Shown: positions 3,434 through 61,498 of the stretch, in pieces
Numbering within the stretch: the first letter of the stretch is position 1
Layout: the number at the start of each line of letters is the position of its first letter
Assembly (NCBI GenBank): GCA_016748015.1
Contig: JAAOMT010000571.1
Location: 62,001 to 126,000, forward strand
DNA from: Geosiphon pyriformis uo1
Taxonomy: Eukaryota > Fungi > Glomeromycota
Length of the DNA stretch: 64,000 nt
Reading direction: 5' to 3'
The notes under the pieces: generated by a model
Seen by the model: the letters and a program-made list of their open reading frames with translations, nothing else
Told to the model about the DNA's origin: nothing
Databases searched by the model: none
Made by a program: the position numbers and the translations under genes

Positions 3434-14915
<11,482 letters not shown>

Positions 14916-15588: not shown

Positions 15589-15589
<1 letters not shown>

Positions 15590-23874: not shown

Positions 23875-26800
23875 AACTTTAAATCATAATCATTGTAAAT
23901 TGTGAATTTTAGATTTACGAACTTGGCAAATCAACAATTATAAATGGCAACATAATAATACTAGTAATATTAACAAAAAAAAAGTTAATTTAGTTTTGAT
24001 TTTAAATTAAATAATGATAAGAAATAATTAAATAACAATACATGTTAATATATTATTTGTTTTGCTTTATAATTGGTAATAATTAATCAGAATTAACAAT
24101 ATAATCAAATATTAATCTAAGTTTAACAAAGTGTAGCCCAATGACATGAAATTCAAATAGCCATGACTTATGCATTTTTTTACATGTGATTAGCCATTCA
24201 ACCCAGTTAAGGCTAAATTAAGTTGAATCTACAAAAGCAAATTTATCCAAAAAAATAATTTTTTGCATAATTGCAATCAAATTATTATTATTAAGAACCA
24301 AACCACCCAATTATACAACTATTTTATTAAAAGCTTAAAGCTTCTAAAATATTATTATCTTAGCAAAAAAAATTTTATTAGCAGAAAAATTCGAATTATT
24401 ATTACAAATATTAAATAAATTATTTATATTATATTTTATCTTAAAATTAATAATTTTTTTACTTAAATTATCAACAATTTTTTTAAAAATATTAATATTT
24501 TTTTCAATTACAAAAAACTTTTTTTTATCTTAATATTCAAAAAAAAGAACCACTTATTAATTTAATAATTAAGATAATTAAAATATTAATAAACTTAGTA
24601 ATAAATTTAATTAGCAATATAAATTTAAACAAATCAAATTTTAAAAAACTAATTTGAAACCAATTATAAAATCAATATTAATAATAAGAAAAAAATTCAA
24701 AAAAATAATATTTTTACATATAATATTATATTAAAAGAACAAATATATAAAAAATTTAAAGTTAATCACAAATTTTATTAAAGTTTTAAAAAAAACATTA
24801 TAAATACTTTACAATTTAAAGCCAAATAATTCAATTATTTATTTATTTAATGAATACAGTTTAATTTTTATCTAATATAAAGAATCAAACTAAAAAACAT
24901 TAATAATAATAATAAATGATTTATTATAATCTAAATAAATTAATACTAAAGCTTAAATAAGCTTTTTTCTTAATGTATTAAAAACTTTTTGTTGTTTTTC
25001 TGTTTATTTATATTTGGTATTCTTGGCTTAAAACTGGTAAAATGGCTGAATTAATTTTAAAAAGTTGTAAATAAAGCATTAATAATATTTAGCAAATTTT
25101 AAAAATAATTAAAATTCAGTAAAATTGATTAGTATTAGAATTTTTTTGACTATTTTAATCTTATTTGGATTTATTTTAATGTTATTTTTGCCAATGACAT
25201 TCCAAAAACTTTGAGTTATGTTTTTCCAAAAAAATATTTAATAACATTTAACTTTAATTTAGTTTTTTTAGTCTTTTAAATACTTGTTATAAATAATAGA
25301 GATAATTATCAAATGTTTTAAAAAATATATTGGTATTATCCAAGTAAACTACTATTAATTTTTATAATAATTTAGTATAAACAATTTTTATTAATCATTG
25401 GAAAATAGCTAAGGCATTAGTTAAGCCAAAAAATATAACATTAAATTCAAAGTTTTTTTCTCTTATAGTGAATACTGTTTTTTTTATTAGTTAAATTCAT
25501 AACTATTTGTCAATAATCACTATTTAAGTCTAATATAAAAACTTATTTTTTTCTTTTAAATACATTAAATAATTTCTGAATAAGTAAATTGGATAACTGT
25601 TTCCATAAGTAATATTGTTAAGTTTCTTGTAATTTATATAAAACCAAATTTTTCTGTTTTTTTTCAAATAAATATTACTGATAATGATCATAAATTTATA
25701 AATAGCTGAATTAATTTTTTGTCTAATACTCTATTAATTTTTTGTTAAATAATCTTATAACTAATAGATAATACTTAATATGTTTGTTGTTTAATTGACA
25801 TAGCATTTTTAATTTTGATTTGATGTTAAATAATATTTATTTCGCCAAATTTATTTTTACTTACAAAAATATTAATAAAATTATTGAGTAGTAGCTTAAT
25901 ATACATATATTAAAGTAGATTTAAATTTTCCAAGTTTATTTGTTCTAACTATTTTAATTATAACAAGTAGTATTTTTTTTATTCTTAAATTATTTGTAAT
26001 GTAAAATTACATATTTATACAATTATAAAAAGTTTGAAACAGTAATAAATAATAAATTTTCAATTTTAGCATTTAAATACTCAATAATAATTTTTATTGG
26101 TATTTTTATTGAATTTTCTGTTGTGTTGTGAATTAGAATTCAAATATGTTTGTAGTTTTTGGTTGGTAAATATAAATTGGTAATGGCAATCTTTTTTGAT
26201 TTGCAAATAATAAGTTTTACTTTAAAATCTGGAGTTGATTTTTTATTTTCTTTGTTATTTTTAATATATATTAATTATATAGTAAAATAGAAATTAGTTA
26301 ATTGGTAGAAATGATTTTTTTCTGATCAATTATTTTTTTTTCTATTATATTTACAGATATTTCTATTTTATTTATGAATTCAAATCTATTTATTTCTTTT
26401 ATTGTTATCTCTAATTCTTCTCTTATTCTTACTAATACTAATTAAATTATTTTTATTAAAGACAGAAATATTGTTTGTGTTATTTTTTTATTGGGTTTAA
26501 TAATATAAACTTTTTCTGATTTATTTTGTAACATTGCAATAATATTTTTTATAAATCTTATATCAAATATTTTTTTCTAATGCTAATTTTTTTTTGCTAA
26601 ACTAAATCTGAATGCTAATTGGACTATTGTTGTTAAAATTTCCAGTACTATTTTTAAATTTATATTGATATATAAGTAGAGCTCTAATGTGATGGTTTTC
26701 TTTTTAAAATATTTGAAATCAAACTCTATATTAGTATTATGTATGCATTTTAGTATGACATTCTTATTATTATTGTTAAAATATTTAAGTTTTTACTTTA

Positions 26801-27124
26801 TAAAAAAATTTGAAAGTATAATATAATGTTTAAAATTTAAATTGGTATTTGAATTGTTATTACTATTGTTATTATAAATAGCATTAGAACTATTATTGTT
26901 ATTATTGTTAAAGTTTGAATTATAATTGATTATTGATTTTAATTTTCATATATATTTGTTAATTGGTTCTTTTTTTTAAATATTAAATAGATTATATGTA
27001 ATAATAGATTATAAATAAGATTACAATTATTACAATATTTAAAATCACATAAAATTAAAAAATAACCACAAAGTTTAGTATTTAATTGTTTTAAATACTG
27101 CTTTTGTTCTTTTTTAATAGATGC

Positions 27125-27958
27125 TATTACTTATAAAAAGAAAACAGATATAGAAAAATAGTAGGCCAGTAAGAAAGTAGTAGTTAGCATGTGAGCACAT
27201 TGCTTAGCAATATAAAGCAATGTCAAAAATCATGGCATATTATTCAGCAATATGAAGCAATGTTAAGAAAATATGGCATATTGTTCAGCAATGTGAATAT
27301 TGCTTGAGAAATTATAGCACATTGCTTGAAAATGTAAGTGATCTCGTAAAACCTAAATTATGTATATATAGTGATAGCATTAGAAGTAGAAAAGACAGAC
27401 CTCTCAGTTTAGATTTAATCTAAGCCACCTTTTCATTCACAAATATCAATAAATAATTATTTGCTATCTTAATCCACTCTCCACTATTAACACTTCATGT
27501 TGATAGCAATTAATACTTAACTACATTAGAACAATAGCTCTTGATCATGGCTATTAATGGGATACTAACTTGCAATTGCTTTTGTTTATTTTCTTTTATT
27601 TTTTTTATTTCTTTGTTTTACTAATTGATTAGAAATTAAGCACTAAGTTATTGATGTCATGAATAGTCTGGTAAAAGACCCAGAAATAAGGGTAAAATTA
27701 TATATATTAACAGACAGCTTACCAGAAGGGCATGACTGCCAGATTAAACTGGTCACCACACTAAAGACAGAAATTGGGAAAACAACTTGAGGAAAACAAC
27801 TTAAACCAACCATAGTGAATCTCTATCTATTATACAAAAAACTCTGCAACAAATCTTCAGATTCACCAAATCTTCAGATATCAACACTAGAATACCAAAC
27901 TAGCACCAAGTTACAGATTTGTTATTTGATTTGAGACCCCAAATAATCATCTGTAATA
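27125..27958 (+). repeat. 5' LTR of element A (834 bp; termini mutated TG->TA and CA->TA)
   Basis: Direct repeat of 36359-37101; TATA-like TATATATAG near 27363. Confidence 0.93.
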
Positions 27959-28020
27959 TTTGATGCTCTCTGTGAAATATAATTCTACAGAGAACCAGCA
28001 CCAACAACAATCATCCAAAA

Positions 28021-31000
28021 GTGGCAGAATTAGAAATCATAGGGACAAATCATCTAGGATTCGCCAAATTCTTGTTTCAATGGTACAGCCAACAATTGGG
28101 ATTAAACAATAACCATTTCTCAGCAGAATCAGTTTTTAACTTCTATGTCAATAATAAAATCACAGACTGCTTAGAAAGAACAGTTGACATTAAATCTGCA
28201 AGAAAAAACTTATATACAGAATTATTTCAACATACCAGTTTACCAAGAAACTACAGTTTCACACCAATCATCAGGGAAATCAATCAAACCATTAAAAAGT
28301 ATGCACAACAACAATTCTCCATCACCTATACAGACAAAGGCAAAGGAAGATTGCAAATACTAGCAGTGACATTAAAACAAATATAACCACCCACTTGGAA
28401 GAAAACCAGAGTTGAATTACCAGCAAACCCATCATACCACTATATACCTGGAAGCACCATTAACATCATATCAACAGATGTATCCATATCAACTATGACA
28501 TCAACATTTGGACAATTCCCATTCCAGAGTAAACAAAAAAAAGAAGATTTTTTAGGACCATACAGTGTGTATTTTGAAGGATTTAAGTCATGATTGTCAA
28601 TGCCATCAGAACTTTGATCTCCACCACCCCAATTCAATTTTAGAACTGCGAGTTTTTGGGAAATAATGGAATCGGAAGGAGAACAGAAAGAAGAGGAAGA
28701 AGAATCTGAAGATCAAGAATTTACTTACCAGAATCCGATCCCAGAAAACCTGGAAATTAAAACCCCAAATCTACAAATTCAGCAAAATCTAAACTTGAAA
28801 AATCCAGAAATCAGAACTCCGAATATTTCAACACTACTGAATTAAGACAATCCAAACTCTGAGTTAATTAATTAGCAAAACTTATTTCCAATAATTATCA
28901 TTGATCAGCCACCAGCTGAACCAATCTAACCACAACAAATATTACTACAACAACTACAACAACCGCTTCAACAGCCACAACAACAACTTCAACAACCAAA
29001 CTTAGATCCAATGGCCTATACTCCAATAGCAAAACTTGAGAAATTCATCAACAAAGAAGACAATGCCCAAATATGACTTAACAATGTTGAAAAAGCCATC
29101 ACAGCTAATGGATGGAATGACCAGAGAGCATTTCAAGTCATCTCTTATTTCTTACAGGATATCACCAACTCGTGATATCAAAGTTTAGCTATCAAACCCC
29201 AAACATTCTAGGAATTTAAAACCACATTCTTGGGATATTTCAGTAATAATAACAGCATTAATTGCTTGGCAAACACTTTTATCACTATCAAGCAAGGAGA
29301 AAATGAAGCAGTCACTACTTACTTAGAATGCTTCCACAAAAATCTGCGCCAAATTTAGACCATATAGGCTGATTATTTCACAGCACCACAAATCTTAAAT
29401 CAATTCATTAGAGGTCTGCACAGTAGCATCTTCCAATATGTGTGCCCAATGCATCCAGCAGACTTCCAAGCTATAGTTACAAATGCCAGAGATTTTGAAG
29501 CAGCCAAACTCAAAGCCAACTATGCTTAAGCTGTAAACTTAGTAATGAACAGATCATTTAACTTGGATTCCAAACTGAAGCAATTAAGTGACTCACTCAA
29601 TCAGAAATTAGAAGAGTACTTAGCTAACAACAATCAAGCCATTTATCAACCTCCCCAATGACACAAAAACCAAGGAAATAGAAATTGATTCCAAAATCAG
29701 TCATGTCCAGCATCTTTCATGACTAATTAACAGTGGCAGTAGAAAATATGTACTTGTCACTATTGTGGTAAACAAGACCACTTGCAAATTGATTGCCACC
29801 AACATTTAAATAACCAATGATTGGGAAATCAATATCGAAATCCCAATTGCCAGATTCAAATTCCAAATCATCAATCAAATCCAGCTCTATATCAACCAAA
29901 TTACTTACTGATGACGCAGTCATTGTATCAAACTCCAATGATGCAGCAATTATACTTACCTCCAGTCTATTAGTCTCCAGCATCAATTTATCAACTACAG
30001 TTCCAATCCATTTATCAGTTGCAGTCTCAGGTAATTTATTAGCCCCAACAAAATCAAATACCATCCCAGTACTTATCTTAAAATGAAACCCAAAGGCTGA
30101 AACTAACACAACAAAGCTAAAAATTGTCAATAATAGTCTATTAACCAATCTCCAGTTCTACAGCACAACTATTAGGATTTTAACAATGGAATTCGGGCAC
30201 TGAGAACTCCCAAAATCTGAATGCCCAACACTATTTAAGTCTTTTGGTTATCCCAAAAGATGCCCCACCCAACAACCCAGAAACCAACAACATACTTCTA
30301 ACCACAGTCACCAATAACAAATCACTAGCAGCAATCTTTCCATTTGAACTCGAGGAAACCACACCAGTTCTATTATTCAATAGAGCCATTCTAGATACCA
30401 AACCAATTACCACCATGTACACAGACATAAAAGTTAATGGCCACACCATCAAATTAATCCTAGATAGTAGATTAGCTGGCAGCATTATCACATGACAACT
30501 CATAAACCAATTAGATCACAGAGTTGATTGTGCTGTCAGCATGTGCATAATTACTGTTGATGGAGTGACCAAAACACCAATTGGTGAAATTAATGACTTT
30601 CCATTCAAAGTCAATAGCATCATTACTCCTATCAAAGTCCTAATGATGGAAGCAACCCAATATCAAGCATTGGTAGGCAATGATTGGTTATCCAAAACTA
30701 ATGCCATACTCGATTGGACCACTTAAGAACTACAACTCAGCCAAAATGGCCAACACACCTGAGTACCAGCAACCTGTGGTCACTTCAAACCCAGCACTGC
30801 TATAAAACCACTAATTGAGTTTGAAAAGGACAAGAAAAAACCAACATGGGAAGCATATCAAGTCTTTTGGGCCAATGAAAACCACAACAAGTTACTGCCT
30901 ATACTATTCTGGAACAACAACAGCAAAAGAAAACAAAAGGACACAGAACTTATTTGAAACATTAACTAAGTCTGATAAACCAACAACAATCAAGACAAAA

Positions 31001-34000
31001 TAATAAAGTAAGAATAGAAAAAAGCTAAATAAGAGAAAAGGGAAAGAGGAGAAAGAAAATTTAACACCAATCACCACTTATAATTACTATACAAATACTA
31101 CACCATGATGATCTATCTATTGTCAGCCAAAACTTATATGCATCAATTGTGGCAAAAAATTGTCATCAATGGGTGCATGCTATAATGATGATAAGGAATA
31201 CTCAACAGTAACCAAATTTTACTGCCATGCATGCATCATAGAACACTTTGGATGACCAAAACGGAAAAAAAAATGGGACAATGATCCTTGTCTAGCTTGT
31301 GGAGAAACATTACTTGACGAAGGAATGTGAAATGACATTTCTGGTCAAGGAGAAACATGCAATGCTTCATGTCAGTACACGATCCTTATCAGCAACTGGG
31401 TTAGGAAAGGGACACCAATAAAAGCCGCCTAGAAAAGAGCTGTACAACAATTGGACAGTTGTTCACACAACGATGATGAGATATGAAGAATGGCAATCAC
31501 CAAAATAGAAGAAGCACCACCTGAAGAAATCAGAGAAATCAAAGACAACCCTCCAGAGCCCATAAAACTTGACTGGGACTCAGAACCAGTCATAAATCTC
31601 TTGGATCCAGAACAATTCCATGAACATTATCAAGAGCTAGCACCTACAAAAGAAGAGCAGGAGCAATGCTTGAAAGAAATTAACACTTGACTATGTGATC
31701 ACTGTTTGATTCTATGTGACTTCCAATATTGTAATGAATGTGACCTTATTTACAATTCACTACCATGCATTATTTACACAATCCCAGAAGAAAAAAAACC
31801 AATCAACAGTTGTGCATCAGAATTGGAATCAACTTTCAATCCTGATTCAAACTCTGACAATGACAACAATGAAAACAACAGTTCCAGCTTCACTCCAAAT
31901 AGCAATGAAAATTACAATGATTCAAACTTTGATTTAAACCCCAAAACATTTATCGCATTTTCTGACCTCACCAAAAAACAGGAATTTAAATAGTTTAGCA
32001 ATAGTAGTGAAGGTATCATGCCAGAATATGCACATGATACAGATACAGAGTTTGATCTGAAATATCCAGGAAAAGATTCCATCAAATTGGAACCACATTT
32101 GCACACCTGTATTGATCTTAAAATAGCACTGGAAATTTTAATGACCACTATGATTCAATTAGCATCTAAGAGTAGTTTAGCAAAAAAGAGAATCAACATC
32201 AAAGGAGGAATAATTGATGCAGAGTATATAGGAAATATCATTGCTATATTACAAAACAACTCAGAAAAGACCTATACCATAGAACCAAATAAAAAGATAG
32301 CACAGGCAATATTCCTACCTCTGGTAAAAATAGCTCAGTTAGTGTCAATGGGAAGCAAGAAAGAATTAGAAATAACAGCAAGAGGGATACAGAGATTCAG
32401 ATTAATGGGTAGAATAGATATATCAGTTAATATGGCAGAGGAAAAGATTATTAACAAAGAAAAAATTATCTTAATCCATCAATCAATTTTCATTCCATCA
32501 TATGATCAGTATATGTTAGCCATAAAAAGAGAAGTAAAGAATCAAGCTCAGTTGTTTGAAGCAGAAGCTATCATTTGTGAATTAGGAGAGATTGGACTTA
32601 CTAATCTTTACATATCAGCCAAAAGTCCCAAAAACATCAAAATTCTCATCTACAACATAACGAAAAATGTCATTGAGATACCAAAGGAAACCATCATTGG
32701 ATATTTAACCACTGAAGTTAAGGATCAACCACCAGACCATATTCCAGATTTTCCATAGCTTTGCAGATATGTGGACATCACATTACAAACCATCTATGAG
32801 CAAAGTGAATGTTATCTGCTCCAATCAGAACAATTGGAACAGATAAACATGAAGAATCTAGACTCACTCCAACAGATACAACTAAGAATGTTATTCAGCA
32901 ATTTCAATGACATTTTTGCTAGCAAAAATGAATTTGGCCACACCAATATCATCCAACATTAAATTAAGACTAGAAATACAATGCCAATTAAGCAAAGAGC
33001 ATACAAAGTACCACCAGCTAGTCATAAGATCATTTGTCAAAAAATCAATTGGATGCTTGACAATGGGCTAATTCAGTCATCAATGAGTTCATAGTTGTTA
33101 CCAGTGGTACTAGTCCAAAAAAAAATGGGAAAATTCATTTTTGTGTGAATCACTGAAAACTGAATGGAGTCACCAAAGAAGACAGCTATCCAACTCCAAA
33201 GATCCAAGAACTATTTGATGCTTTTGGAGGAAATAAATGGTTTTCAACACTAAATTTAGATAGTGGTTACTGGCAAGTAGCCATGGATCCAGCTGACAAA
33301 GAGAAAACAGCATTTACCATAAGAAAGGGAAACTTTGAGTTTGAAGTCATGCCATTTGGCTTGATGAATATTCCAGCAACATTCCAATGGCTCATGGAAA
33401 TTGTTTATACTAGATTACTGTGGAAATCAGTAGTTGTTTACTTAGATAACACAAATGTGTTCTCAAAAACATTTGATAATTATCTGCACCATCTCCAACA
33501 AGTGTTTAAAAAACTTAGATGAGCAGGATTGAAACTAAATGCCAACAAATGCTTCTTTGGAAAAACAGAACTAAAATTCTTGAGACATGTTGTGAGTAAA
33601 AATGGCATCAAAACAGATCCAGACAAGATTGAAACTGTCAAAAACTTTCTAGTACCAAACAATTTCACAGAACTAAGAGCATTCTTGAAATTCACAGGGT
33701 ACTATTGCCACTTTATCAAAGACTTTTCTAAACTGGCCCAGCCACTTTATCATTTACAAATTAAGAATGTGAAGTATGAATAGACAAAAGCTCAACAAAA
33801 AGCATTTGACACACTAAGAAGAAAACTTATTCAAGCTCTGGTGTTGATGTATCCAGATCACAACAAACCATTTATTATCACCACTGATGTATTAGACCAG
33901 ACATTGGGAGCAGTACTATCACAGAAAAAACCAGATGGAAGAAAACATCCAGTAGCTTACGCCAGTAGAAGCTTAAGTCCAGCTGAAAAGAATTATGGAA

Positions 34001-34242
34001 CATTAGCATTAGAACACTTAGTAATTTATTGGGCAGTCATAAAATAGAAAAAATACTTGAGTCAGAAGTTTGATGTATATACTGATCACAAAAGATTGAC
34101 TTTAATCCAGAAACAAAAATTTGAAGATGATTGCCATGTCAGATGAAAAATAGAACTTTCACCATTTAATTATATGATACATTATAAAAAAAGAAAAGAC
34201 AATGGAAATGCTGATGGTCTGTCGAGAATGAGACAAATCTAA
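28021..34242 (+). pseudogene. gag-pol of element A (Gag, protease, Cys-rich region, dUTPase, RT, RNase H)
   Basis: One frame through gag and protease, single-base slips near 31027 and 33120, many transition-type premature stops. Confidence 0.85.
32018..32412 (+). pseudogene. dUTPase domain in pol of element A
   Basis: Five dUTPase motifs: DTEFDL, SKSS, GGIIDAEYIGNI, KIAQAI, RGIQRFRLMG. The altered ones revert to DAGFDL, SRSS, GIIDAGYVG and RGIQGFGSTG by undoing G->A or C->T changes only. Confidence 0.9.
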
Positions 34243-34272
34243 AAACATTTTAACCTAAAAATATAACAAAAG

Positions 34273-35655
34273 ATGAATATACAAAAATATCAACAACTCC
34301 AATATTATATAAATACTCAATTGTTCAAGAAGAAATTATCTCAAAAAGAGCAAAGAAACATAAAACAACAATCAAAATACTTTATCAACCATCAAAATAT
34401 ACTTTACTGAAAGAACAAAAAAAATTCAGACCAACCAACCAGAGTAATCACAGAACCAGAGAAAGAGACAATATTATTCAACATGCACTCAGATCCAACA
34501 ACAGAACATTTTCATAAAAAAGCAACCATAGAGAGAACTAAAAAAAAATATTATTGGCCATTAATGTATCCAGATATCATTCAATATGTCCAAAATTGTA
34601 ATGCTTGTCAAAGAAGAGAAGGAACAAAACCCAGTAAACCATTGAGACCAATCAAAGTGGAACAACCATTTGATCACATTGGAATTGACTTAGTCAGATC
34701 ATTAATAATTACCAGCAGAGACAACAGATATATTGCAATAGCCATGAACTATCTTATTAAATGGCCAGAAGCAAAAGCCATTTAAAGAGCAGATGCAGAA
34801 TTCATTGCTGAATTTGTTCATCAAGATCTGATCTGTTAACACAGATGCTCAAAAAAATTATTATTTGATCAAGGAACTCACTTTGTGAATAGAACATTAG
34901 CAGAACTAAGCCAAAGATTTGGAATAAAAAGACCACTATCATCATCATACCATCCACAAACAAATGGGTTAGTTGAAAGATTCAAAAGAATACTGTGTGA
35001 AGCAATAGCCAAAATTAGCTAAGAAAACCAGAACAAATGGGATTTAATTATATTATCAGTATTATTTGCATATTGAACAATAAAGCAAGACACCACATAA
35101 GCAACACTATTTGAATTAGTATATGATAAAACAACAACATTACCAGTTGAGATAGAAGTCAATACATATCCAACTGAACCAATAACAGAAGATAATTTCC
35201 AAGAAACATTGTTGAAAAGAACATATGACTTAATAGAAACACTAGAAAACAGACGACAAAAAGCAGCTAATAACATCCAAAAGTCACAAGAAAAGCAAAA
35301 AAAATGACATGATAACCAACTACCAGATAAACCAGTTGAATTTAAGATTGGAGACAAAATATTATTACATTATACCAAAGCAGAAAAACAATGGAGTGGA
35401 AAATTTGACCCCAAATGGGATGGACTATTTCACATAGAAAAAATTTTTGAAAATGAAGCTTATAAATTAAGATAAAACAACAAAATTTTAGCCAAAGCAG
35501 CACATGGTGATCGACTGAAATTATATCACCAGATAGCATCATTATTTACCAATAACATTCCACAACTGAGAGTACAAAAAATATTAATTCAACCAGATGA
35601 GATTCTATGCGATCTGAAACCAATCATAATTATTGAACCAAACATATCAAATTGA
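34273..35655 (+). pseudogene. Integrase of element A
   Basis: MHSDPTTEHF...CNAC (HHCC), FDHIGIDLV, FDQGTHF, HPQTNGLVERF, KFDPKWDGLF; no chromodomain seen. Confidence 0.9.
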
Positions 35656-35709
35656 ACAACCAAAAAGTATATAAAAACACAGTACACGTGACAAAAGCAA
35701 CCAAGAAAA

Positions 35710-36345: not shown

Positions 36346-36358
36346 AAGGAGGAGATAA

Positions 36359-44411: not shown

Positions 44412-44531
44412 TGATTGTTAATCTGATCAATGACCTGACCGTTGACCTGATCATTGACCTGATCAATGACCTGATTGTTGACCTGATTGTTGATCTGATC
44501 ATTGACCTGATCATTGATCTGGTCATTGACC
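44412..44531 (+). repeat. 12-bp tandem array (TGATCATTGACC) x10 in the 5' LTR of B; x6 in the 3' LTR (51461-51532)
   Basis: Units counted directly; four units equal the 48-bp LTR length difference (726 vs 678). Confidence 0.92.
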
Positions 44532-46655: not shown

Positions 46656-46690
46656 GCACATCTCCAAAGGATAAAAGTACAAGCCAACCA
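46643..46690 (+). promoter_or_regulatory. Programmed -1 ribosomal frameshift signal (T TTA AAC + stem-loop)
   Basis: The heptamer is in gag phase, one codon before the gag stop. The -1 frame is open from here into protease and RT. Downstream TGGTAGGC...GCCAACCA can pair. Confidence 0.75.
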
Positions 46691-49327: not shown

Positions 49328-49392
49328 TAGTAAAACCCTCTCAAACCAAACCAACTTAATTATTTGTAACTCCCCCACAAACAAACACAATA

Positions 49393-50706: not shown

Positions 50707-50747
50707 ATAAATGCACCATTCCCAAAACAGAGGTATCTTCAATCAAC

Positions 50748-51404
50748 ATAAACAATTATTTCCTGGATCAAAACATTCAAAACGCTTTCTATACTCTCCA
50801 TGAGTACTGGATCAAGAACTATCCAAATACTACTTTGACTATCGGAAAACAAACCACCATAACAGACAACAGTAAAACTCACACTGTTATTAGACCAAAG
50901 AAAACAACTACCAGAAGAGAAAAAATTGGTGGCAAAATGGATAAATACCTGTTGGAAAGCATAACAGCAGTAATACTTTCACTTTTCAGCACAATTGGAA
51001 AAACAATACAAGAAATCTTGCCCATAGATAAAAACTTGTCATATGAAAGACAACTAGAACTCTATGATTGTCTTGGTGAAATCATAGAAGACATAAAGCT
51101 CATGAAGAAAACAACTTCAGAAATACAAGGGAAAATTTTGGCCATTATACGATTAAATGTCCCAAGAGTTTTGACCATTACTAGAAGAGCCAGAACTCTT
51201 ATACAAAGATTTGGTCTCTTGGATACAAAACTTATTTTACCTCAAGTATTATATACCCTATCCACAAAAGATTTCAACAAACTAATTAGTTTTGAATTAG
51301 ACAAAACCCTTCACATAAACTATCCCATAAATAGCTTGATTTCACCAGAGCTCAATCTCTTTGGAGAGAATGATGTTATGGTTGAAACCCATAGTTTTTA
51401 TTAG
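50748..51404 (+). CDS. ORF3 of element B (unknown function; open frame 50652-51404 reading into the 3' LTR)
   Basis: 250-codon stop-free frame between integrase and PPT; probable start CAAC-ATA (decayed ATG) at 50748. Confidence 0.7.
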   Translation: MNNYFLDQNIQNAFYTLHEYWIKNYPNTTLTIGKQTTITDNSKTHTVIRPKKTTTRREKIGGKMDKYLLESITAVILSLFSTIGKTIQEILPIDKNLSYERQLELYDCLGEIIEDIKLMKKTTSEIQGKILAIIRLNVPRVLTITRRARTLIQRFGLLDTKLILPQVLYTLSTKDFNKLISFELDKTLHINYPINSLISPELNLFGENDVMVETHSFY

Positions 51405-53082
51405 TTATCACATGTATTAGCCACTGATGTCATATAATTAGCCACTCTATTTTTAGATAGTGATCATTGACCTGATCAATGACTTAACCGTTGACCTGAT
51501 TATTGACCTAATCATTGACCTGGTCGTTGACCACTTTAGATAGCTATATAAGTGATGATTCCCTTAGCTGTAAAAAAACATGATCAAAGTAACGAAATAA
51601 ACAATATCAATTATTTCCTCTCATAATCGCTTATTCCCCTTTCTTTATCTTTAAGTATCTACTTGTTGGCATTCACATACCTTATCTTTTCCCCTTCTTG
51701 ATTTGTATTTGTTAGAATTAGCCTAAAAAGCAATTGGCTTGCTCTTGTAATTCATTGAATAAAGAAACGATTGAAAAGTACAATGATACCTGTTATTGAT
51801 TCTAAGAATTACCAAGTTGAAGCATAGAATAATAGCAGCGGTGTTATCTTGTTAACAATCACAGACTATTTCTCTACCTTTAGATTTAAGAAAAGATTAG
51901 TGACTGTGATTTTTATGAGACTGATCACACACATTGAATTCCTATTTATTCAATTCGCTCCCTTATTGTAATTCCCTCTTTGTTTATTTCCATCACTATA
52001 CAATACTGTTCTCCCTTGCTATCCGTTAGCTTGTTACTCCAACCCATAACAATAGTATCTAAATTTTTTTTGTCTTCTTAAGTAGCATATAATTTTTTTG
52101 TTAATGTAAAAATTGAAAACTGATTTTATTGGCCAATAATTATTTTTTAATCCTAAGTAAGTTTAATAATATTAAAATAAGAATTTTGCAAATCTTAAAT
52201 AATTTTTTTCTATGATTTTTTAGTTTGCCACTTTTTCAAATAGTTAATACTAATACTTGTTTTCTGTTAAATTATATCTTATAAGAAGTATTAAATATTA
52301 TAAATAATTATTTAGAATATTAAAATAAATAACAACCTTATAACTTAGTGCTTAATAACTATTTTTAATATTAATTTCTAAAGGTTTTCAAATTTAAAAG
52401 TTTTTAAGTTAAGTTTTTTGTATAATAAACAGAGATTTACTTAATAGTTATTTTTCTAAATTTTTTTTTTTAACATAAAAACTAGTTTAATCTAACAGTC
52501 ATGCCTTTTTGGTAAGCTATTTTTAAGTTTTTATTTTTGTTTTACAGATTTTTACCAGAATATTTTTGATATTAATATCTTAGTACTTAATTTTTTAATT
52601 AATTAATAAACAATAACAAAACCAAAGAAAATAAAATAAAATAAAATAAAATAAAAATAAAATAAAAATAAATAAAAAATTAATATTTTATTAATAGTTA
52701 TAATTAAGAGCTATTGGTCTAATATAGTTAAACAGCAGATATTATTAGCATAAATTGCTAATAAAATTGAAGAATATCAATTTTAATCCAATAAAAAAAA
52801 TAACATAGATTAAAAATAAATAAATATTTTATTAATATAAATATAAATCTGTTTTAAAATATAAAAAACTATTTTTTAAAAAAGAAGTATTTTTATAATT
52901 AGCTTGTTACTAATTATTTGTCTAGTTATTGGTTTTAAAAATTGATTTTTTTTTATTTTTAATTTTACTACTATATATATATAATTCTTATTATACAAAA
53001 TCTTTTAAAATTTTTTTTTTACTATACTTATTTTCTATTAGTTGTTATTAACTATTATGATTCTTATTTTTTATATGTAATA

Positions 53083-55850
53083 ATACTTTAAAAAAAATTG
53101 TAAACTTTGATTAATTTATAAAATATATACAAAGTATATAATTTTGTAGATTAAGAATATTTAAAAAATAACTTAAATAAAATCAAAATATGTAAGTTAA
53201 TTAAATTATAACTAATTTAATAAATAACTATTATATTCATAATAAATTGGATCAAGACAAGATTTATTTATTTATTTTTTGACATATTTTTTATAATTTT
53301 TTTTTGTGTAAAATTAAAAAACAAAAGAATATATATAATTATAAAATTAATTATAAACTTTTTGTTAAAATTAAATAATTTAAAATCCAAATAAGTATGA
53401 TGTTATTTTTTATTGTTAATATTTTTATTAATAATACAATTTAAATAAAATGTAGTTAAGCTGTAATTCAGTATATTTTGAATATTACAAGTGATTTTTT
53501 TCAAATCAATAATATTTTAATTAATAATAATAAGATAGTGGTTATTTTCATTAATAATAAAGTTGGTTTTTTTTTAATAATTAGTAGTTTGCCTATTTTA
53601 ATTGCCAAAAAAAAAACTTGAGTATTTTTGTATTCATAAATAAATTATTAAAACCCAGTCTGGTTAAAATTTATTTAAATATTAGGTTTTTTATAAGCAA
53701 AGTTTTGAAAAAGATTATAACTAACAAATAATTTTTTTATTTGGTTTTAATAGTTTTATATTTTATTATTAATTATAAAATTTAGTTTAGTTTTGTTTTA
53801 ATTAGTATATATAATAAGAAAGACACTTTGATTTAAAAAAAATTGAAATTAAAAATTAGTTTGTTTTTAGACTTTTTTAATAATATAGTTTATTATTTCT
53901 TTTTATATAACTTAAAATTTTTTAAGCAAATATAGATTGAGTGTAAATTGGCCTTTATTTTAAGTTTTCAAATATTAACAGTATATAAACTGGCTGTTTG
54001 GTTATAAATTTTTGGATCTTTAAATATTAAGTTGGTTTTTTTACTATTTTTGCTTTTTTTATTTAGTTTTTGTGTTAATCTAATATTATTAAAGATTTTT
54101 TTATCCTTTTGTTATTATTAATACTATTTTGTTTTTAAATTTGCTGCTAATAAAAGTTAGTAAACTTTTAATAAGCTAACTTTTTTTTCAAAATATTTTT
54201 TTATATTTTGAATAATATGTGTTGTTAAACTTATAATAAAATAAACAATATTATATCAATTACTTATATAGTTACTTTGCAATAAAAGTTAATTCTTTTA
54301 CAAAAAAATCTTGTTTATAAGTTTTTTAAAAATATATGTAATTATTTTGTTGTAAAAGTCAAACTTATTTACAAAAAATTTTGACTGTAAACTACTTAAT
54401 AATATAAAAAAATAAAAAAATAAAAAAAAATAAAAAATAAGTTAAAAAAGTTATTTTTAAATTCAAATCTAAAAATTATTAATAGTTATTAAAATTAATA
54501 GTTAATTAATTTTAAGATGTTAATATAAAAAAAAATTTCAAAGCAATAATTAAAAATTTGTATTGTTTAATATAAGTTTTATTTAAATTGATTTGTAAAA
54601 AAATATTTTTAGTTCAAGTAAAATAATTTTAACTAAGATATATTTTTCAAAGAGAAAAACTCTTTTTTTATATAATTTGTTATAGTACTATTTTATAATT
54701 TAGCATTTTTTTTTAATATTTTGGCAAATTAAAAATATATTTCAAACTACAAATTATTTTTCTAAACTATAAATTATTTTGGCAAATTATTGAATATTTT
54801 GTCAAATTACGTCAAATTTTAAATATTATATAGTTTAATATATTATATAATCTAATTATTACAATTTGGTTATATTTGTATTTTATATAAATTAAATTAT
54901 TAATTAAGTAATAATTCAGATATTTTAATAAAATAATAAGTAATAAATTAAAATAATAATATATGTTAATTAATAATAAAAATTATAGAAATAATTTTAT
55001 GCTATTTAATATTTCAAATTTTGATTAATAATACTAATTAACAATTTTTGGCTAATATAATTAAAATTTTTTGTGATTAAAATTTGTCTTTGAATAATAT
55101 TTTGTTTTTAATGTTTTAATTTTCTAAGAATATACTAATGTTTATTGTCTTTAATAATTCTGTTTTTTTAAAATTTTTTATTTAATTAAATATTTTAACA
55201 TTGTTTTTATTAAATAGCTATGTAATAAAAATAATAAAGTTTTTAACTAAAAAAACTTTTAACATTAAAAATGACTTGATTTTTATGACTTAGTTTTCAT
55301 ATGATTTGTATTAACAATAATATATTTGGATGTTTTAATAAATTAATAAACTTCTCTTTTTTTATAAAAAATATCTAACTTTTGAATATTTTGAGCTTTG
55401 ATAAATTTTGTTAAGTGTATAATAAATTGTTAAAGACTAATTTTTCTTGTTTTTTGTCTATATTAATGATTTTTTAAAGAGTTTGAATTCAATATACATA
55501 AGAGCTAATGTCGTAATATTTTTTAATAGTTTGGATTTTAGTATTAAAATTAAAATTTTTGGTTTGATATTATCTACTTTGACCAAATTATAAGCTATTA
55601 TATTGGTTTTAGAATATATTTTTCTCTTTTATATAATTATAATATTCTTAAATAATTAAATAACTTTAAATATTTGTTCTTTAAAGCTGGTTTTGGTGTT
55701 GCTTAATTTTCATAATTATTGTTAAATAAAATATTAACACATTATAAATATAATTAAAAAAAAGAATTTGTTTGTATTTTGATCCAAAATTAAAGATTAT
55801 TTTGGTGTTTTTAAAAATAATAAAGCTGATATAATGGTTATATTACATTA
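53083..55850 (+). mobile_element. Decayed LINE-like ORF2 relic (RT + RNase H), interrupted by a solo LTR
   Basis: FINNTI*I at ~53423 (FVDDTIWV-like RT motif after undoing G->A); RNase H-like LSTLTKL*AIILVLEY at ~55570-55620; homologous to the minus-strand copy at 57-58.7 kb. Confidence 0.6.
54084..55033 (-). mobile_element. Decayed solo LTR of family C
   Basis: Reverse complement matches LTR 62503-63518 (e.g. AGAGAAAAACTCTTTTTTTATATAATTTGTTATAGTACTA); 4-bp TSD CTAA at 54080-83 and 55034-37. Confidence 0.8.
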
Positions 55851-56949
55851 TTTTTAAATTTACTCTGGTTATAGTTCAAAATTTTTTAAAAACTAATAGT
55901 ATATGTATATTTAGAAATACAAAAACATTTTATTTGTGAAATTTTTTAAACAATCTATTATATTTATTAAAAAATTAGTTATAATGCCAAAGTTTTAGAT
56001 CAAAATTTAATCAAAGACATAAATTAAGTCAGTTTTTTATTGGTATAGTACTTAAACTCTTATATAATAACTAAATATATAAATCAGATTACTGTTAATG
56101 CTTATTTTTATTTTATAAAAGTTTTGTATTATTGATTGTTTATAACTGTTTATAAATATCTATATAATAAATATTATTATAGTATTCTGTATCTTTTTTA
56201 TGATAATATTGAGTTTTTTGATTATTTATTTTCATGTTTAATTGATTTTGCTACTTGTAATATTTTGCTAATTTTTTAAATTGATATATAAAAATTTGTT
56301 TCTGGTTTATATAAATCTTTATTTTATGTGTCTTAATTATTATTGTTGTATTTATTAAATATTGTAATATATACTGTTTTATGTAAAAATTTTGTTTTTA
56401 GAAATTAATATTTGAAATTTTTTTCTGTTTTTGGAAATTCTAAGATTCCTATTAATAAAATTATAAGTTTTGTGCATGATTTAGACTTAATATACAAAGA
56501 TAAAATTTGGTTTATCTGTTCTAAGTATTATATAATTATAAAAAAAAAGATTTAATTTTATTAGATGATTTGATATTTATTTTTATTAATAGTTTTCTTA
56601 ATATATATTAAAAATTATAATTAAATTGGTTAGTATTACAAAAGCTTTAGATATTAGTTTTAATATATATGTTTTATGTTTATTTATTTTTAGTATTAAT
56701 AAAGGTATTTTTGTTTATATAAAAGTATAATATTGTTTTAATTGACTTAAATAGCTAATTATATATAATAAATATATAATTTATATATAGTTTAAATTAC
56801 TTGGTTTAATATATTATACTAAGTAATATTTGAATCTTACTTATTAAACAAATAAATAAAAAAGCTAATTGCTAATCTTTTATTTTTTATTTATTAACTA
56901 ATTTTGTTAATTAAATATAATAATATAAGTTTTTTTTGCATAATTTTAA

Positions 56950-58690
56950 TGGTAATTTTTATAGTATATATTGTAATTTTTGCATTAATAATTATAAAAA
57001 TTTGTTAATAATAATGTTTTTTTATTCAATAACAGTTTTAAAAATTGAAAAATTCATATACAGTTTATTATTGTACAAATTTACAGTCATTTAGCTATTA
57101 AAAATAATCTTTATTATATTAAATAGAAATATATATTCAAGAACCAACCAAATAATTTATAACTTAATTAATATTAATAAAACAAGTCTCTAAATTTTAA
57201 CATTAATATTTACATTCAAATTTTTGAAATAAATTACAGCTTTATATATTATATTAGAAAAACTAAGATCTTAAAATAACTTATTACTAAAAATTCTTAT
57301 TATTAAAAAATTAAAGCTTAAAAAATTAGCTGATTTTAGCATATTATAACAAATATTAAAACCAAAAACAAGAGGCACCAAAATTTGTTTATAAAGATGT
57401 AAAATTGAATTATAATTTTGAATTAATAAAAAACAAAGTCCTTAAAATTCAGTTATTTTAATACTAAAAAGTTTTTTAATCAAAAATTAATTTATATTTA
57501 TTAATTAATTAGTTAATAAAAGTTATATTAAACTTTTTTAAAGACTTAATATTTTATAATATAAGTTAATATCAAAAATATTAGAAATTAAAACATTATT
57601 AATACAGTAAAAAACAGTAAACAAAAAGTTTAACAATAAAATTTTGTAATTTAAAAAAATTTTAATTATCTTAATAAGAAAGTTGTTAACTAAACTAACT
57701 TTTAATTTAATTAGATATTGTAATAAGTTTTTAAAAATTTATCTAACTATTTGCAAATTCAGAAATTAATAATTAAAAAACTTATTAACAATATCTTATA
57801 TATTAGTAAAAACCAACAAAAAAGCTATTTTAATTTAAATTTAAACAAATAACTTAAGATTATACAAAAAATAATAATATAAAACATTAATTAAAAAGTT
57901 TTTTGGTAAATTAATTTTGAATTTTAAACTGTATTAAATCAATATGTTTTGTTTTTAATACACAAATTTAAAAACAAAACTGAATTAAATACAATAATTA
58001 ATAATAAAATACAAAAACCAAATAAAAAAATTATTTGTTAAATATAGTCTTTTTTAAAAAACTTGACATTAAAATAAGTTTTAAACATATTAAGCTTAAA
58101 AAAACTATTTGTAAATAAAAAAATACCAAGATATCTATGCTATTTTTTATTTTTAACTATTATAATTAGAAAGTTATTAATAAAAAAAAATATTAGCAAT
58201 TTTTTTGTTAATAAGAATAATAATTGTCTTTTTTATATTAATTAAAATATTATTAATTGTAAAAAATTTACTGGTAATATTAAATATATGTTAGTATAAT
58301 TATTATTTATTTAGATAGTATTATTTACAAAAACATCAACAGCAAAATATAAAATTAAATTAATTTAATCTTTTATTCTGTTTGTTTTTACTATTAGTTT
58401 AATGTTAATATAATATTCAAAAAACTGTTTATATTTCTTAATTTTGCACAAAAATGATCATAAAATATTTATTATAGCAATAAAAAAAAACTTTGTTCTA
58501 ATTTAAACTATTGTAAATTCTATACTTATTTGTTAATTTAAAATTAGTTATAATATAATTAATATAATTATCATAAATTTTAGTAAAAAATTTAATAAAC
58601 TTCTTATATATTTTGATTTTTTTTAAATTGGCTTAAAGATAGAATTAACCAACCAAATTATAAACTTTATATATTATTACAAGATAGTTT
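56950..58690 (-). mobile_element. Second decayed LINE-like ORF2 relic (RT + RNase H), opposite orientation
   Basis: Minus-strand FAVDVFVNNTI*I at ~58310-58350; inverted similarity to 53100-53830 (e.g. TAACAAATAATTTTTTTATTTGGTTTT). Confidence 0.6.
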
Positions 58691-58778: not shown

Positions 58779-59544
58779 TGTTATAAGTTGAAATAACAAG
58801 TTAATAGATAGCAAAAAAGAACAAAATTATAGAATAATAAAATTAATTAAAGAAAAAATTACAATAAAAAAACAAATTAAATAAATAAGAATTCAATATA
58901 TATAATTAGTCTTATAAAAATCACAATTTTAAATCTTTTTTGGAAATTTAAAGGTAGAAAAATAGTCTATAATTGTTAACAAAATAATATTACTATTATT
59001 ATTTTATGCTTCAACTCAGCAATTCTTAGAATTAATAACAAATATTGTTGTGCTTTTCAATTATTTTTTATTTAATAATTTATAAAAGCAAACAATCACT
59101 TTTTAAGCTAATTTTAACAATACAAATCAAGAAAAATAAAATAAAATATGTAAATACCAACAAATAATCTTTTATTCCAAGATATTTAAATACTTAAAGG
59201 TAAAAAAAGATAAATAAACAATATAAAAAGAAATAATTAATAGTAGATTTTATTTTATTACTTTAATTATTGATACATTTTTTTTTATAGCTAAAAAATT
59301 TATTGCTTATATAACTATTAAAAATAGTTAATGACCAGATCATTAATCAAGTTAATAATCAGATTACTAATTAGATTAATGATTAGGTTAATAGTCAAGT
59401 TAACAATCAAATTATTAATTAAGTTAATATTCAAGTTAATACTTAAATCATTAATTATTATCTAAAAATAAGATGGCTAATTATATAATATTAGTGGTTA
59501 ATACATATAATAACTAATAAAAACTATGGATTTTAATCATAACA
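58779..59544 (-). mobile_element. Decayed solo LTR of family B
   Basis: Both ends match LTR-B in reverse complement (TGTTATAAGTTGAAATAACAAG...; ...AACTATGGATTTTAATCATAACA); remnants of the 12-bp array at ~59330-59455. Confidence 0.85.
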
Positions 59545-61498
59545 ATATTATATTAAAAACTTTTTTTTTAATGCCATAATATAAATTATTTTTTAATTTT
59601 TAATTATTATATATATTTATGTACTTTTTTTTTAAAAATTAAACTAAAATTTATCTATTGTTTTAAAGTTTTTTTTGAAACTATTTTTACAATTGCTTAA
59701 TGTATTTTTCTAATTTAAAAACATAAAATATTAATAGTTTTTAACACATTTTTTATTTTATATAATAAAACTTTTATTAATTAATAACAACATAAATAAT
59801 CTTAATCAGAGATTATTTTTTCAAAAAATTTAGCTAATAAATAATAATTTTGTTTAATAAATAATACAAATAAGTTTTTTAATACTTTTAATTATAATAA
59901 TTCAATTTTTAGTATTATTTCTGATTTTTTTTTAATTTAAAGATTTTTTAGGATATTTATTAAAATAAAAACTAAAAAATAATTAAAATAAAAGATTAAA
60001 ATTTGGCAAAATTAAACTATTAAATAAATTATTGTTTTTTTTAATATTAAAACTACTATATATATACATATTTGTAGTTTTATAAGAAAACACATTATAA
60101 TATTTTTTTTAATATCTCAATCTAGTGTTTATTGTTATTACTAATTAGTATTTATTACTATTATAAATTAGTGCTTGTTACTATTGTAAAATAATATTTG
60201 TTACTATGTTAATTATTATTTTTCTAAGATTATTACTGTGCTATATTATAATTAAATAATTTATATTATTTTATAATTTTTGTATTAAATTTTTAAATCA
60301 TAACAATATATTTTATAAAATTAATTACAATATATGAATTTTTTTAAAGCATTTTTTAAAATAATATTTACTGTTATAATTAAAAACAACATAAATGTGT
60401 TCTTTAAAACTAAAAAATTATTACCAAAAAATTTTAAATTTACTACAAAAAAATAAAATGTGATTTAACAAAATTTTAAAAAAAACTTTTTATACTATTT
60501 GATAAATATAATTAAATAAATATTAGTAAAAATTTTTTTTAATTATAAAATTTAAAAATTATTAAGACCCGAATTTTTTTCTATTAAATAAAAATTATCT
60601 TTATTACTAAATACAAATTTAGCAAATATAAAAGCAAAACAATAATAATGTTTTTATAACTTATTAATAATTTTAGAAAAGTTAACAGTTTTATTATCTG
60701 GCAAATTTTTAACAACCAAAAATTTTTTTATCTTAATTTAATTTATTATTTTATTAAAAATATTATTATTAATATAGTTAAGTAGAACATATTATGTATA
60801 CCAAAAATTAAAAAAAATGCTAAACAAAATACATATTTGGTTTAATTTTCTATGATCAAATTTACAAATAATTTAATTTTATTAAAATTTATAACAAGCT
60901 TATTATTTATAACTAAATAATTTAAAATTATTTTGTAAAAATAATAATCTAATATATAAATTATATAGTTTTTGTTATTAATAAAATTCTTTATGTATTT
61001 CTTAATAATAGTTTTAATTCTTTTTGATTTAATTTTATAAGACTTAAAATATTTTAATTAGTAATATTTTTTTTAGCTTTATATAAAACTTTCTAAATAA
61101 CCAAAAATACAATAATATTATCTACCAAATCAAAAACAAAAAAATATTTACAGTATCTATTAAAATTTATTTTTGTATAAAACAAAATTAATTAATTTTT
61201 TTATACTATATAAATTATTTTAAATTACAACTTTAATAAAAAAAATTAACCAAGTCTAAATTCAAGTATTTTTTGAAATTTGCATTATACTTAAAACTAT
61301 TTTTATTAAAGTTATTATTCAAAATAACAAAAGTATTTGTATTAATTATATTAGTAAAAAAAACTTCTTTCTTTCTTTCGTCCAAAATTCCCAAAAAAGA
61401 GTCAAAAGTTTTTTCAAAAGAAGTTTTTTACTATTCAGTATGATAAATCAAAACTGTTCTTTGATTACGAGGCCACTGTTGGCCCTGTTATTGCTGTT

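Follow-up and report, generated by a model that had tools for sequence, protein, structure and literature searches.

The window, by which we mean the whole stretch of 64,000 nucleotides analysed here, carries two host genes followed by a cluster of transposable elements (TEs). The first gene (3758..14125, minus strand), recognised by its open reading frames and a Pfam RasGAP domain (E 1.6e-13), is a RasGAP gene, presumably neurofibromin/Ira-like, and provides a control region that keeps its CpG (CpG o/e 0.94). The second (16901..23874, plus strand) was identified with Pfam as the acetyl-CoA carboxylase gene ACC1 (CpG o/e 1.03); its spliced transcript runs to about 23950, its best named matches come from Gigaspora rosea (64%) and Acaulospora colombiana (61%), and its intron at 22621-22709 is skipped in sequencing runs X2 and X3, both of which consist of spliced RNA. 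Calculated by kilobase, CpG o/e is 0.75-1.41 between 4 and 24 kb, save for two bins at 13-15 kb (0.52 and 0.70), and 0-0.32 between 24 and 62 kb. Calculated by feature it is 0.94-1.03 in host exons versus 0-0.23 in TE relics, which bears out an earlier sequence-only reading of this DNA, according to which host genes are rich in CpG and the TEs nearly free of it. NCG codons number 71 in ACC1 versus 0-1 in TE frames.

Two elements in the cluster, both on the plus strand, have paired LTRs, a target duplication and the order PR-RT-RH-INT, and are Ty3/Gypsy LTR retrotransposons. Element A consists of a 5' LTR (27125..27958; ends TA...TA, 4-bp target duplication ATGC), an internal region (27959..36358) with gag, protease, dUTPase (31994-32758), RT, RNase H and integrase (34273-35630) in Ty3/Gypsy order and with many stops, and a 3' LTR (36359..37101; ends TG...CA). 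Element B has a 5' LTR (44325..45050; target duplication ATAG), an internal region (45051..51373) with gag, protease, RT, RNase H, integrase (49360-50577) and an extra ORF (50652-51404), and a 3' LTR (51374..52051); the closest named match to its integrase is Geosiphon pyriformis G9A89_010833 (77% over 36% of the query). As previously claimed, stops occupy codons homologous to TGG (TAG at 33092 and 34045, TGA at 34144), and both RTs read YLDN (at 33439 in A and 48518 in B). However, the YLDN of B (GAC AAC) and at least one arginine stop (TGA at 35074 in element A, opposite a conserved R) sit at CpG sites, and so offer no evidence for mutation outside CpG. Similarly, the proposed conversion of LTR ends from TG to TA and from CA to TA applies to the 5' LTR of A only, the other three LTRs having kept TG...CA, while the sequences quoted for the end of the B LTR and for a solo copy are present in the window as given.

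Elements A and B, together with a solo LTR, are hosted by one older minus-strand element. Its pieces, all related to element A, comprise a dUTPase-RT-RNase H part (24885..27124), a protease part (37102..38563; GC 0.17, no CpG), a gag part (39344..40786; GC 0.19), a 5' internal piece to the left of element B (44161..44316; score 119.5, shuffled maximum 50), and a 5' LTR remnant with the start of the internal region (52056..52770; GC 0.155). In the first of these pieces, T or A now stands at 447 of the 712 positions that hold G or C in the young copy (226 by C>T and 221 by G>A); contigs of run X1 are identical to it over five pieces, and the relic is without cover in RNA runs X2 and X3, a result that carries no weight on expression. 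The inserted solo LTR, a partial minus-strand copy of family A (38564..39190), shows intermediate decay. Also on the minus strand is a likely hAT DNA-transposon relic (40790..44150, ends approximate; GC 0.185, no CpG), for which Pfam gave a weak hAT-like RNase H match below the cut-off (E 0.01) and two of the three frames tried were without a Pfam match; its C-terminus carries what we take to be a hAT motif. It contains a 114-bp tandem duplication (42599..42824) whose copies differ by 17 transitions and no transversions over 112 columns.

Further right lies a very old relic with inverted arms (53179..58580; scores 478 and 235, shuffled maximum 49). Its arms (53179-55731, interrupted, and 57020-58580; GC 0.13-0.155) differ by 234 transitions and 256 transversions over 1,549 columns, which makes only a weak clock, given that terminal repeats and two separate copies are not distinguished. 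The relic is interrupted by a decayed minus-strand copy (54221..55033) of a repeat that is likely a third LTR family, here termed LTR-C, 139 of 235 G+C sites having been lost by C>T or G>A. A younger plus-strand copy of this likely LTR (62500..63390; GC 0.28, 8 CpG) lies beyond the region described in the sequence-only reading. A minus-strand solo LTR of family B (58779..59545) has lost 122 of 208 G+C sites by C>T or G>A, alongside two C>A and no C>G changes, and is followed by the most eroded tract of all (59550..61360), with GC 0.114, TpC/GpA o/e 0.55 and GpC o/e 2.46. Pfam searches of 61640-62284 and 63630-63998 returned no match. Comparison of the window with itself found no homologue of the tracts 70-2000, 15390-16100 and 59550-61380, nor one of the old A copy's integrase end.

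Older nested copies have lost 59-63% of their G+C, with no difference between the strands or among codon positions. That decay tracks nesting order is true of A (GC 0.33), B (0.36) and the solo LTR (0.24) within the older element (0.155-0.19), but not of the LTR-C relic, whose GC (0.11) is below that of the relic it interrupts (0.14-0.155), its family starting from a lower value (0.28). Nor do older copies approach pure AT, as had been suggested; GC instead levels off at 11-19%.

Between the paired LTRs of A and B, 1,405 ungapped columns hold 110 transitions and 2 transversions, in agreement with the earlier statement that such differences are almost all transitions. Transitions account for 98% of these differences and, in the reads of the family, for 148 of its 157 variable positions; run X4 gave no matches to the family. 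Two comparisons give the direction of change as C>T/G>A. Where at least 80% of family read depth has C or G, and among the 40 of 168 rows listed, 19 sites show T or A in the window, with one change in reverse and one transversion; none of the 19 lies in CpG as judged by window neighbours. Outgroups, moreover, retain C or G at 34 of 100 differing sites versus 43 of 1016 invariant A/T sites. The frequency of C>T changes is flat over codon positions (0.574, 0.576 and 0.592; p 0.88) whereas transversions favour third positions (p 9e-12), and C>T changes are consequently free of selection. The process acts on LTR elements and on the likely DNA-transposon relic, and the 17:0 ratio in the tandem duplication of the latter indicates that reverse transcription is not its source; the one-strand G>A pattern of RT-stage editing is likewise absent from the old A copy, where C>T and G>A are equal on the coding strand.

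Three quarters of the LTR-pair differences (84 of 110) fall outside CpG, and 74 of 402 non-CpG cytosines with both neighbours identical differ between LTRs. CpG decay alone is therefore insufficient, as was originally argued, and the removal of every CpG would still leave a GC of 0.35; sequential CpG creation is likewise ruled out as the source of the non-CpG changes. In these pairs CpG is nonetheless the most affected context (26/38, versus 84/455 for non-CpG sites), followed by cytosines after a pyrimidine (YC, 61/240) and after a purine (RC, 23/215), an order that holds between the latter two when only sites with identical neighbours are counted (54/212 versus 20/190). A weaker context effect of a pyrimidine at +2 accompanies that of the 5' pyrimidine, while the 3' base hardly matters outside CpG (A 36/175, C 14/63, T 24/164; p 0.25 in a separate count), so that no preference for CpA exists. 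Relics have CpA o/e of 1.05-1.08 and TpA o/e of 0.92-0.93, compared with 0.6 and 1.14 in a simulated CpA-directed RIP; they end GpC-rich, with TpC depleted to o/e 0.55. Our context model misses CpC/GpG (0.75 simulated, 1.10 observed). There is no excess at CHG over CHH sites (16/80 versus 67/373, and 208/364 versus 939/1494), and hence no plant-type CHG signature, nor does distance to CpG affect non-CpG mutations (p 0.56, 0.72).

Mutations are not overdispersed along the LTRs (p 0.29, 0.85) and 5' and 3' LTRs carry similar loads, an even spread that fits a clock-like process. Same-strand runs appeared strong in the raw data (p 3e-5), yet this signal is largely a context artefact: with context and adjacency controlled, p is 0.18 over all 13 sets and 0.015 for the young copies (Stouffer). 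The weak clustering left in the young copies would also suit episodic RIP. Once context is controlled, no strand coordination remains at 40-400 bp, whether in young or in old sets, and long one-strand tracts were not demonstrated, although one of four LTR copies, the 3' LTR of A, shows strand runs (p 0.004).

These observations support a cytosine mutator that would act after insertion, on both strands and beyond CpG, and that appears, by composition, to be confined to TEs in an early-diverging, Glomeromycotina-like fungus, an affinity to which the nearest named proteins point. The sequence-only reading had proposed an active homology- or heterochromatin-directed mutator of RIP-like character; the both-strand and beyond-CpG aspects of this proposal stand, as does, by composition, the TE-confined one, but the case for RIP is weaker, since its defining CpA preference is absent and mutations are evenly spread. 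A bias towards AT, or UV damage, that operates throughout the genome and shows only in unselected DNA would be in keeping with introns of 20-24% GC, with the tracts at 70-2000 and 15390-16100, outside the TE cluster, at 8-16% GC, and with a preference for dipyrimidine sites as with UV. However, genes and unique spacers are without the scar by composition, and the spacers (26-33% GC) show the opposite of the relic signature (CpG o/e 0.66-1.04, TpC o/e 1.09-1.19, GpC o/e 0.6-0.9). ACC1 keeps 32% GC at four-fold sites as well as its NCG codons, and the scar begins within about 200 bases of its transcript end. Between samples, just one difference in a host gene is well supported, and it is a transversion (22321 G>T, run X3, n=1); non-dipyrimidine sites are mutated too (ACA 5/53, GCA 2/26). 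General AT bias, which had been named as a refuting explanation, thus fits poorly, and we consider it very unlikely and the least probable of the alternatives. Scarcely more probable is a TpC-preferring, APOBEC-like DNA deaminase acting on chromosomal repeats: the 5'-pyrimidine preference, the depletion of TpC and the weak short-range strand coordination would suit it, but ApC and GpC are still mutated (8-12% in LTR pairs, 52-56% in old copies), long one-strand clusters are missing, and two observations exclude its RT-stage form, namely the 17:0 ratio in the hAT tandem duplication and coding-strand counts in which C>T matches G>A.

Two further alternatives deserve more weight, although we regard each as unlikely. 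Passive decay, in which 5-methylcytosine in all contexts deaminates spontaneously over time in nuclei that divide slowly and repair T:G poorly, with no mutator enzyme involved, agrees with the precedence of CpG over non-CpG sites, the even spread and the clock-like loads. Non-CpG transitions also occur in our controls, seven LTR-like pairs of other organisms, drawn from distant metagenome elements of at most 38% identity (ts/tv 4.6 pooled; single pairs up to 15:0 and 35:4). Against it, the non-CpG rate per cytosine relative to the transversion rate per site is about 129 here and 7.6 in the control pairs, some 17-fold apart, although the former, resting on 2 transversions, may lie anywhere from about 36 to 1,000 (exact Poisson limits); the contrast of 110:2 with 154:37 is significant (Fisher p 1.7e-6). 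In the controls the 5' base makes no difference (T 0.166, C 0.177, G 0.178, A 0.194), and passive decay would need dense CH methylation, of which we found no report for Glomeromycotina in the accessible portions of the literature. True RIP, in which a RID-type enzyme mutates duplicates that are sensed through their homology when nuclei fuse or during the sexual phase, would here have to favour YC instead of CpA, with CpG loss arising separately through ordinary methylation. The process resembles the RIP known from Neurospora and further Pezizomycotina (with RID and DIM-2) in that it produces C>T/G>A alone, affects both strands and every repeat class examined, and leaves AT-rich relics with dead ORFs; decay levels off as copies diverge, the 3' LTR of A shows strand runs, young copies show weak short-range strand coordination, and RID is said to be retained in arbuscular mycorrhizal fungi (AMF) along with DIM-2, DNMT1 and DNMT5 (PMC8298701, citing another paper, in its available text). 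Unlike in Neurospora, CpG is hottest, outside CpG it is chiefly the 5' pyrimidine that counts, TpA is not in excess, the spread is even and clock-like, and the host is Glomeromycotina-like. RIP is confined to repeated DNA; here two AT tracts without a known homologue carry the relic signature, while genes and unique spacers lack it by composition. Loss of strand coordination at longer range and a very high family copy number (12,256 contigs on 1,480 bases) also argue against RIP, and a kingdom-wide screen recovered RIP-like signatures only in ascomycetes (PMC12543289), although the part of its genome table available includes neither Geosiphon nor Ambispora. A homology-triggered, RID-dependent RIP in the Geosiphon lineage, with a new 5'-pyrimidine signature missed by CpA-based screens, is accordingly a minority prospect in our estimation.

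The best explanation, in which our confidence is evenly balanced, is a mutator that is linked to a methyltransferase, works gradually and would be restricted to the chromatin of transposons; direction by heterochromatin or methylation would fit better than direction by homology. A DIM-2/DNMT1-class enzyme would methylate TE DNA, densely at CG and more sparsely at CH, and methylated or enzyme-bound cytosines would turn to thymine faster than by the passive decay of the control retroelements. Inserted copies lose CG cytosines first and then others, mostly after a pyrimidine, and the resulting nonsense and catalytic-site damage would inactivate each copy before much neutral divergence had built up; in old relics the process would slow, probably with the loss of CpG and methylation. 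The order CpG > YC > RC parallels the CG-high, CH-low methylation described in the available text on Phycomyces, which has DNMT1 and Dim-2 (PMC7862722). A precedent for a mitotic, DNMT-dependent mutator is Dim2 of Zymoseptoria tritici, where, in the accessible part of that report (PMC8016269), over 95% of changes are C>T and confined to methylated repeats, and the process is gradual and needs no sexual stage; however, over 98% of those changes hit CpA while CpG is left alone, whereas here CpG is lost first. TpCpG hypermutation in Pucciniomycotina (PMC3318451) and CpG decay of methylated fungal TEs (PMC4352252) share TE-restricted CpG loss and a favoured 5' T, but not the predominance of non-CpG changes. 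In the same subphylum, the available texts on Rhizophagus irregularis and Gigaspora margarita (PMC8647823, PMC13443276) describe CG methylation focused on TEs, with old copies losing mCG in AMF (PMC8647823), which would explain CpG loss here; their methylation calls are for CG only, and within those texts non-CpG hypermutation is not described and RIP signatures are undetected in G. margarita or Mucoromycotina. RIP-like change outside Dikarya has been claimed for Zoophthora radicans (PMC11105155) from dinucleotide indices, whereas our evidence comes from alignments and reveals a context other than such indices assume.

Under any of the leading mechanisms, TE-directed mutational defence, thought absent from this fungal group and limited in the prior literature to ascomycetes in its RIP-like form, would extend to Glomeromycotina. 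The context, CpG and then YC with GpC spared, provides a simple index (GpC up, TpC down) with which early-diverging genomes could be rescreened. For the Geosiphon lineage, ages of LTR insertions and repeat landscapes probably come out many-fold too old, and many of the annotated hypothetical proteins may be pieces of mutated TEs. Should RID and homology play a part, the finding would also matter for whether these fungi have sex, a question that has long been open; were homology-triggered RIP true, RIP would be older than Dikarya, and the scar would allow episodes of cryptic sex or nuclear fusion in AMF relatives to be dated.

The LTR pairs of elements A and B, the two younger plus-strand Ty3/Gypsy elements, differ by 110 transitions and 2 transversions over 1,405 columns (transversion share, 95% range 0.2-6.3%), as expected from the sequence-only reading that such differences are almost all transitions. 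As controls we used LTR-like pairs found at unrelated metagenome loci (eight, or seven once a duplicate was dropped); pooled, they give a ratio of 154:37 against 110:2 here (Fisher p 1.7e-6), with single pairs as high as 15:0 and 35:4; the median transition/transversion ratio of cross-locus control pairs (n=174) is 2.8. The non-CpG rate per C, relative to the transversion rate per site, is 129 here versus 7.6 in controls. Hypermutation had also been proposed to extend beyond CpG, and 74 of 402 non-CpG cytosines in the LTR pairs do differ with both neighbours identical. These cannot be CpG events, because their neighbours are identical, deamination removes but never creates CpG, and reverse changes are rare (the solo B copy has C/G at 4 of 413 sites that are invariant A/T).

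CpG is the hottest context (26/38 sites differ between paired LTRs, a lower bound, as a site mutated in both copies leaves no difference). At non-CpG cytosines the 3' base has little effect (p 0.25 in pairs, p 0.35 over 1,900 young-old sites). For the 5' base, 54/212 cytosines differ after a pyrimidine versus 20/190 after a purine (p 1e-4 in pairs; p 9e-9 in old copies), a bias absent from the control LTR-like pairs. A second pyrimidine, at +2, raises the rate further: YCHY and RCHR sites stand at 0.74 and 0.51 in old copies, and at 0.27 and 0.07 in LTR pairs. With falling GC, observed/expected (o/e) TpC/GpA drops from 1.08 to 0.55 and GpC climbs from 1.0 to 2.5, while CpA/TpG (~1.05) and TpA (~0.92) are unchanged. 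Decay simulated with 5'-context rates reproduces GpC, TpC, CpA and TpA and misses CpC (0.75 versus 1.10 observed); simulations under context-free, CpG-only and CpA-RIP models fail to reproduce those four.

When 12,256 contigs of sequencing run X1 were aligned to 44321-45800, transitions accounted for 148 of 157 variable places. In a non-random sample of 40 of 168 rows, C/G makes up at least 80% of the family at 19 sites that are T/A in the window, against 1 reverse and 1 transversion; judged by window neighbours, none of the 19 lies in CpG, and several CpG sites stand near 50% among the same 40 rows. Together with near-equal losses by strand in pol (226 and 221; old A, a decayed minus-strand copy of the A family, against a young copy), this polarisation bears out the suggestion of both-strand C>T/G>A change. 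Outgroups keep C/G at 34/100 differing sites, 199/411 invariant C/G sites and 43/1,016 invariant A/T sites; that the first figure falls below 48% (p 0.01) would follow from parallel mutation at hot sites, though it leaves room for some reverse changes. C>T/G>A losses are flat over codon positions (p 0.88) and transversions favour third positions (p 9e-12), so the C>T changes accumulated in copies already inserted and not under selection. Of the changes at conserved integrase positions, C>T/G>A alone could produce 24 of 33 (element A) and 12 of 15 (element B). Across 218 residues a G. pyriformis protein has 46 differences from element B, and transitions alone could explain 40 of these, a share that is 33-45% in eleven other, more distant homologues.

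Old A (~52770 to 24885, minus strand) is split by four later inserts: element A (27125-37101, target duplication ATGC), a partial solo LTR (38564-39190), a likely hAT relic (about 40790-44150; sub-threshold Pfam match, E 0.01), which we take to be hAT partly from a motif, and element B (44325-52051, target duplication ATAG). Element A and its host element are one family. The stretch at 52.8-61.4 kb carries older relics, including a solo LTR from family B and a third repeat in decayed form. Five pieces of old A find exact matches among X1 contigs, so its decayed state is not a product of consensus building, although X1 may be the window's own source. Decay had been said to track nesting, and GC indeed steps down from 0.33-0.36 in A and B, through 0.24 in the solo LTR at 38564-39190 and 0.155-0.19 in old A and the hAT relic, to 0.11-0.16 in the oldest relics. 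Relative to the young copy, C>T/G>A change has removed 50-63% of G+C from most old ones (36% from solo LTR A). The ratio of C>T to transversions is 131 in LTR pairs but 31, 13 and 10 across the older comparisons, and GC still stands at 13-15% where a pair shows 16.5% transversions; this suggests that the process slows with age, the falling ratio partly reflecting pre-insertion divergence.

Among named proteins, the element B integrase comes closest to Geosiphon pyriformis G9A89_010833 (77% across 36% of the query), with Rhizophagus proteins behind it (mostly 39-47%). Together with the acetyl-CoA carboxylase matches given below, this points to a host that is probably a member of Glomeromycotina in the Geosiphon lineage. 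Element A carries a dUTPase between protease and RT (31994-32758, Pfam E 1.4e-17; relic copy 26780-25883), and element B an additional 250-aa frame without Pfam match downstream of the integrase (50652-51404), similar in position to a broken stretch of element A (35630-36358). All three RT copies, relic included, read YLDN (33439, 48518, about 25330), plausibly a chance outcome under a mutator. The 4-bp duplications of A (27121-27124, 37102-37105) and B (44321-44324, 52052-52055) both begin AT, and the solo LTR at 38564 is likewise bordered by ATGC on its own strand; an integration preference is possible. Inverted arms of ~1.6 kb flanking a 1.3 kb middle (53179-58580) could be two copies in opposite orientation, or else a foldback or Mutator-like element, and 61440-62500, adjoining the cluster (215-aa frame without Pfam match, CpG o/e 0.25), is likely a younger transposon fragment. 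An LTR share of 41.2% for G. pyriformis (PMC11952901) and dUTPase in Gypsy elements are mentioned in the portions of the literature available to us.

The left 24 kb holds a RasGAP gene, in which a poly-Asn/Gln coding repeat and an intronic (GA)n microsatellite, both long, occupy 13411-13750 and 12078-12205, tRNA-His (GTG; 16152-16223) and, downstream of it, the acetyl-CoA carboxylase gene ACC1 (top named matches Gigaspora rosea, 64%, and Acaulospora colombiana, 61%). Host genes retain CpG and transposons are nearly free of it, as first read: exon CpG o/e is 0.94-1.03, and NCG codons number 71 in ACC1, with 32% GC at its four-fold sites, versus 0-1 in transposon frames. Unique spacers have TpC o/e 1.09-1.19 and GpC 0.6-0.9, and composition switches no more than about 200 bases from where the spliced ACC1 transcript ends. 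Counting against clean restriction are introns of 20-24% GC and two AT tracts with the relic signature in otherwise unique DNA, 15390-16100 (GC 0.08, GpC o/e 4.95), between the RasGAP gene and tRNA-His/ACC1, and 70-2000 (GC 0.157, GpC o/e 1.55); both are low in CpG, have no homologues within the window, and are possibly fully eroded transposons. A few RNA contigs (runs X2 and X3) resembling LTR-B (44325-45050) have C/G at many window T/A sites, those from X2 keeping CpGs at 44525, 44768, 44838-9 and 44900; a transcribed copy may escape the mutator, in this single case of a different subfamily from LTR-B.

An origin of the mutations at reverse transcription is argued against by a 114-bp tandem duplication with 17 transitions and 0 transversions, which lies inside the likely, not certain, hAT relic. 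RIP proper would yield the same outcome, transposon C>T/G>A, and to that extent the earlier description as RIP-like stands, but the CpA preference that marks RIP is absent, and we consider it a live but less likely rival. Most of the oldest kilobases nevertheless score higher on the crude RIP product index than on the substrate index, and RIP-index screens could give mixed answers on such sequence. The Dim2 mitotic mutator, too, targets CpA in the text available of PMC8016269, whereas here the 3' base hardly matters. Passive decay of 5mC in all contexts is a rival of similar standing to RIP proper.

In the parts of these sources that were accessible, RIP signatures are undetected in G. margarita or Mucoromycotina, and transposons have high mCG that is lost from old copies (PMC8647823 and preprint); RIP-like signatures are limited to ascomycetes and to CpA (PMC12543289, whose genome table, in 12 of 19 supplement files, includes Gigaspora and Rhizophagus and lacks Geosiphon, Ambispora and Paraglomus); Zoophthora has a RIP index signal (PMC11105155); and G. 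margarita methylation calls are CpG-only (PMC13443276). Similarly, AMF keep DNMT1, DNMT2, DNMT5, DIM-2 and RID (PMC8298701, citing another paper), a table row lists RID for Ascomycota only (PMC13297926), and methyltransferase sets are described in PMC7862722. Our literature search, with the Geosiphon and G. margarita genome papers outside its reach, found no report of non-CpG hypermutation in Geosiphon.

Mutated sites are evenly spread along the LTRs, and 5' and 3' LTR loads are similar (33 and 26; 32 and 24). Same-strand runs show a raw excess (p 3e-5) that fades after control for context and adjacency (p 0.18), a short-range signal remaining in young copies (p 0.015). The pattern is real, strong and, judged from composition, confined to transposons; as to mechanism, our preferred reading, at about even chances, is a gradual mutator linked to cytosine methylation of transposon chromatin.
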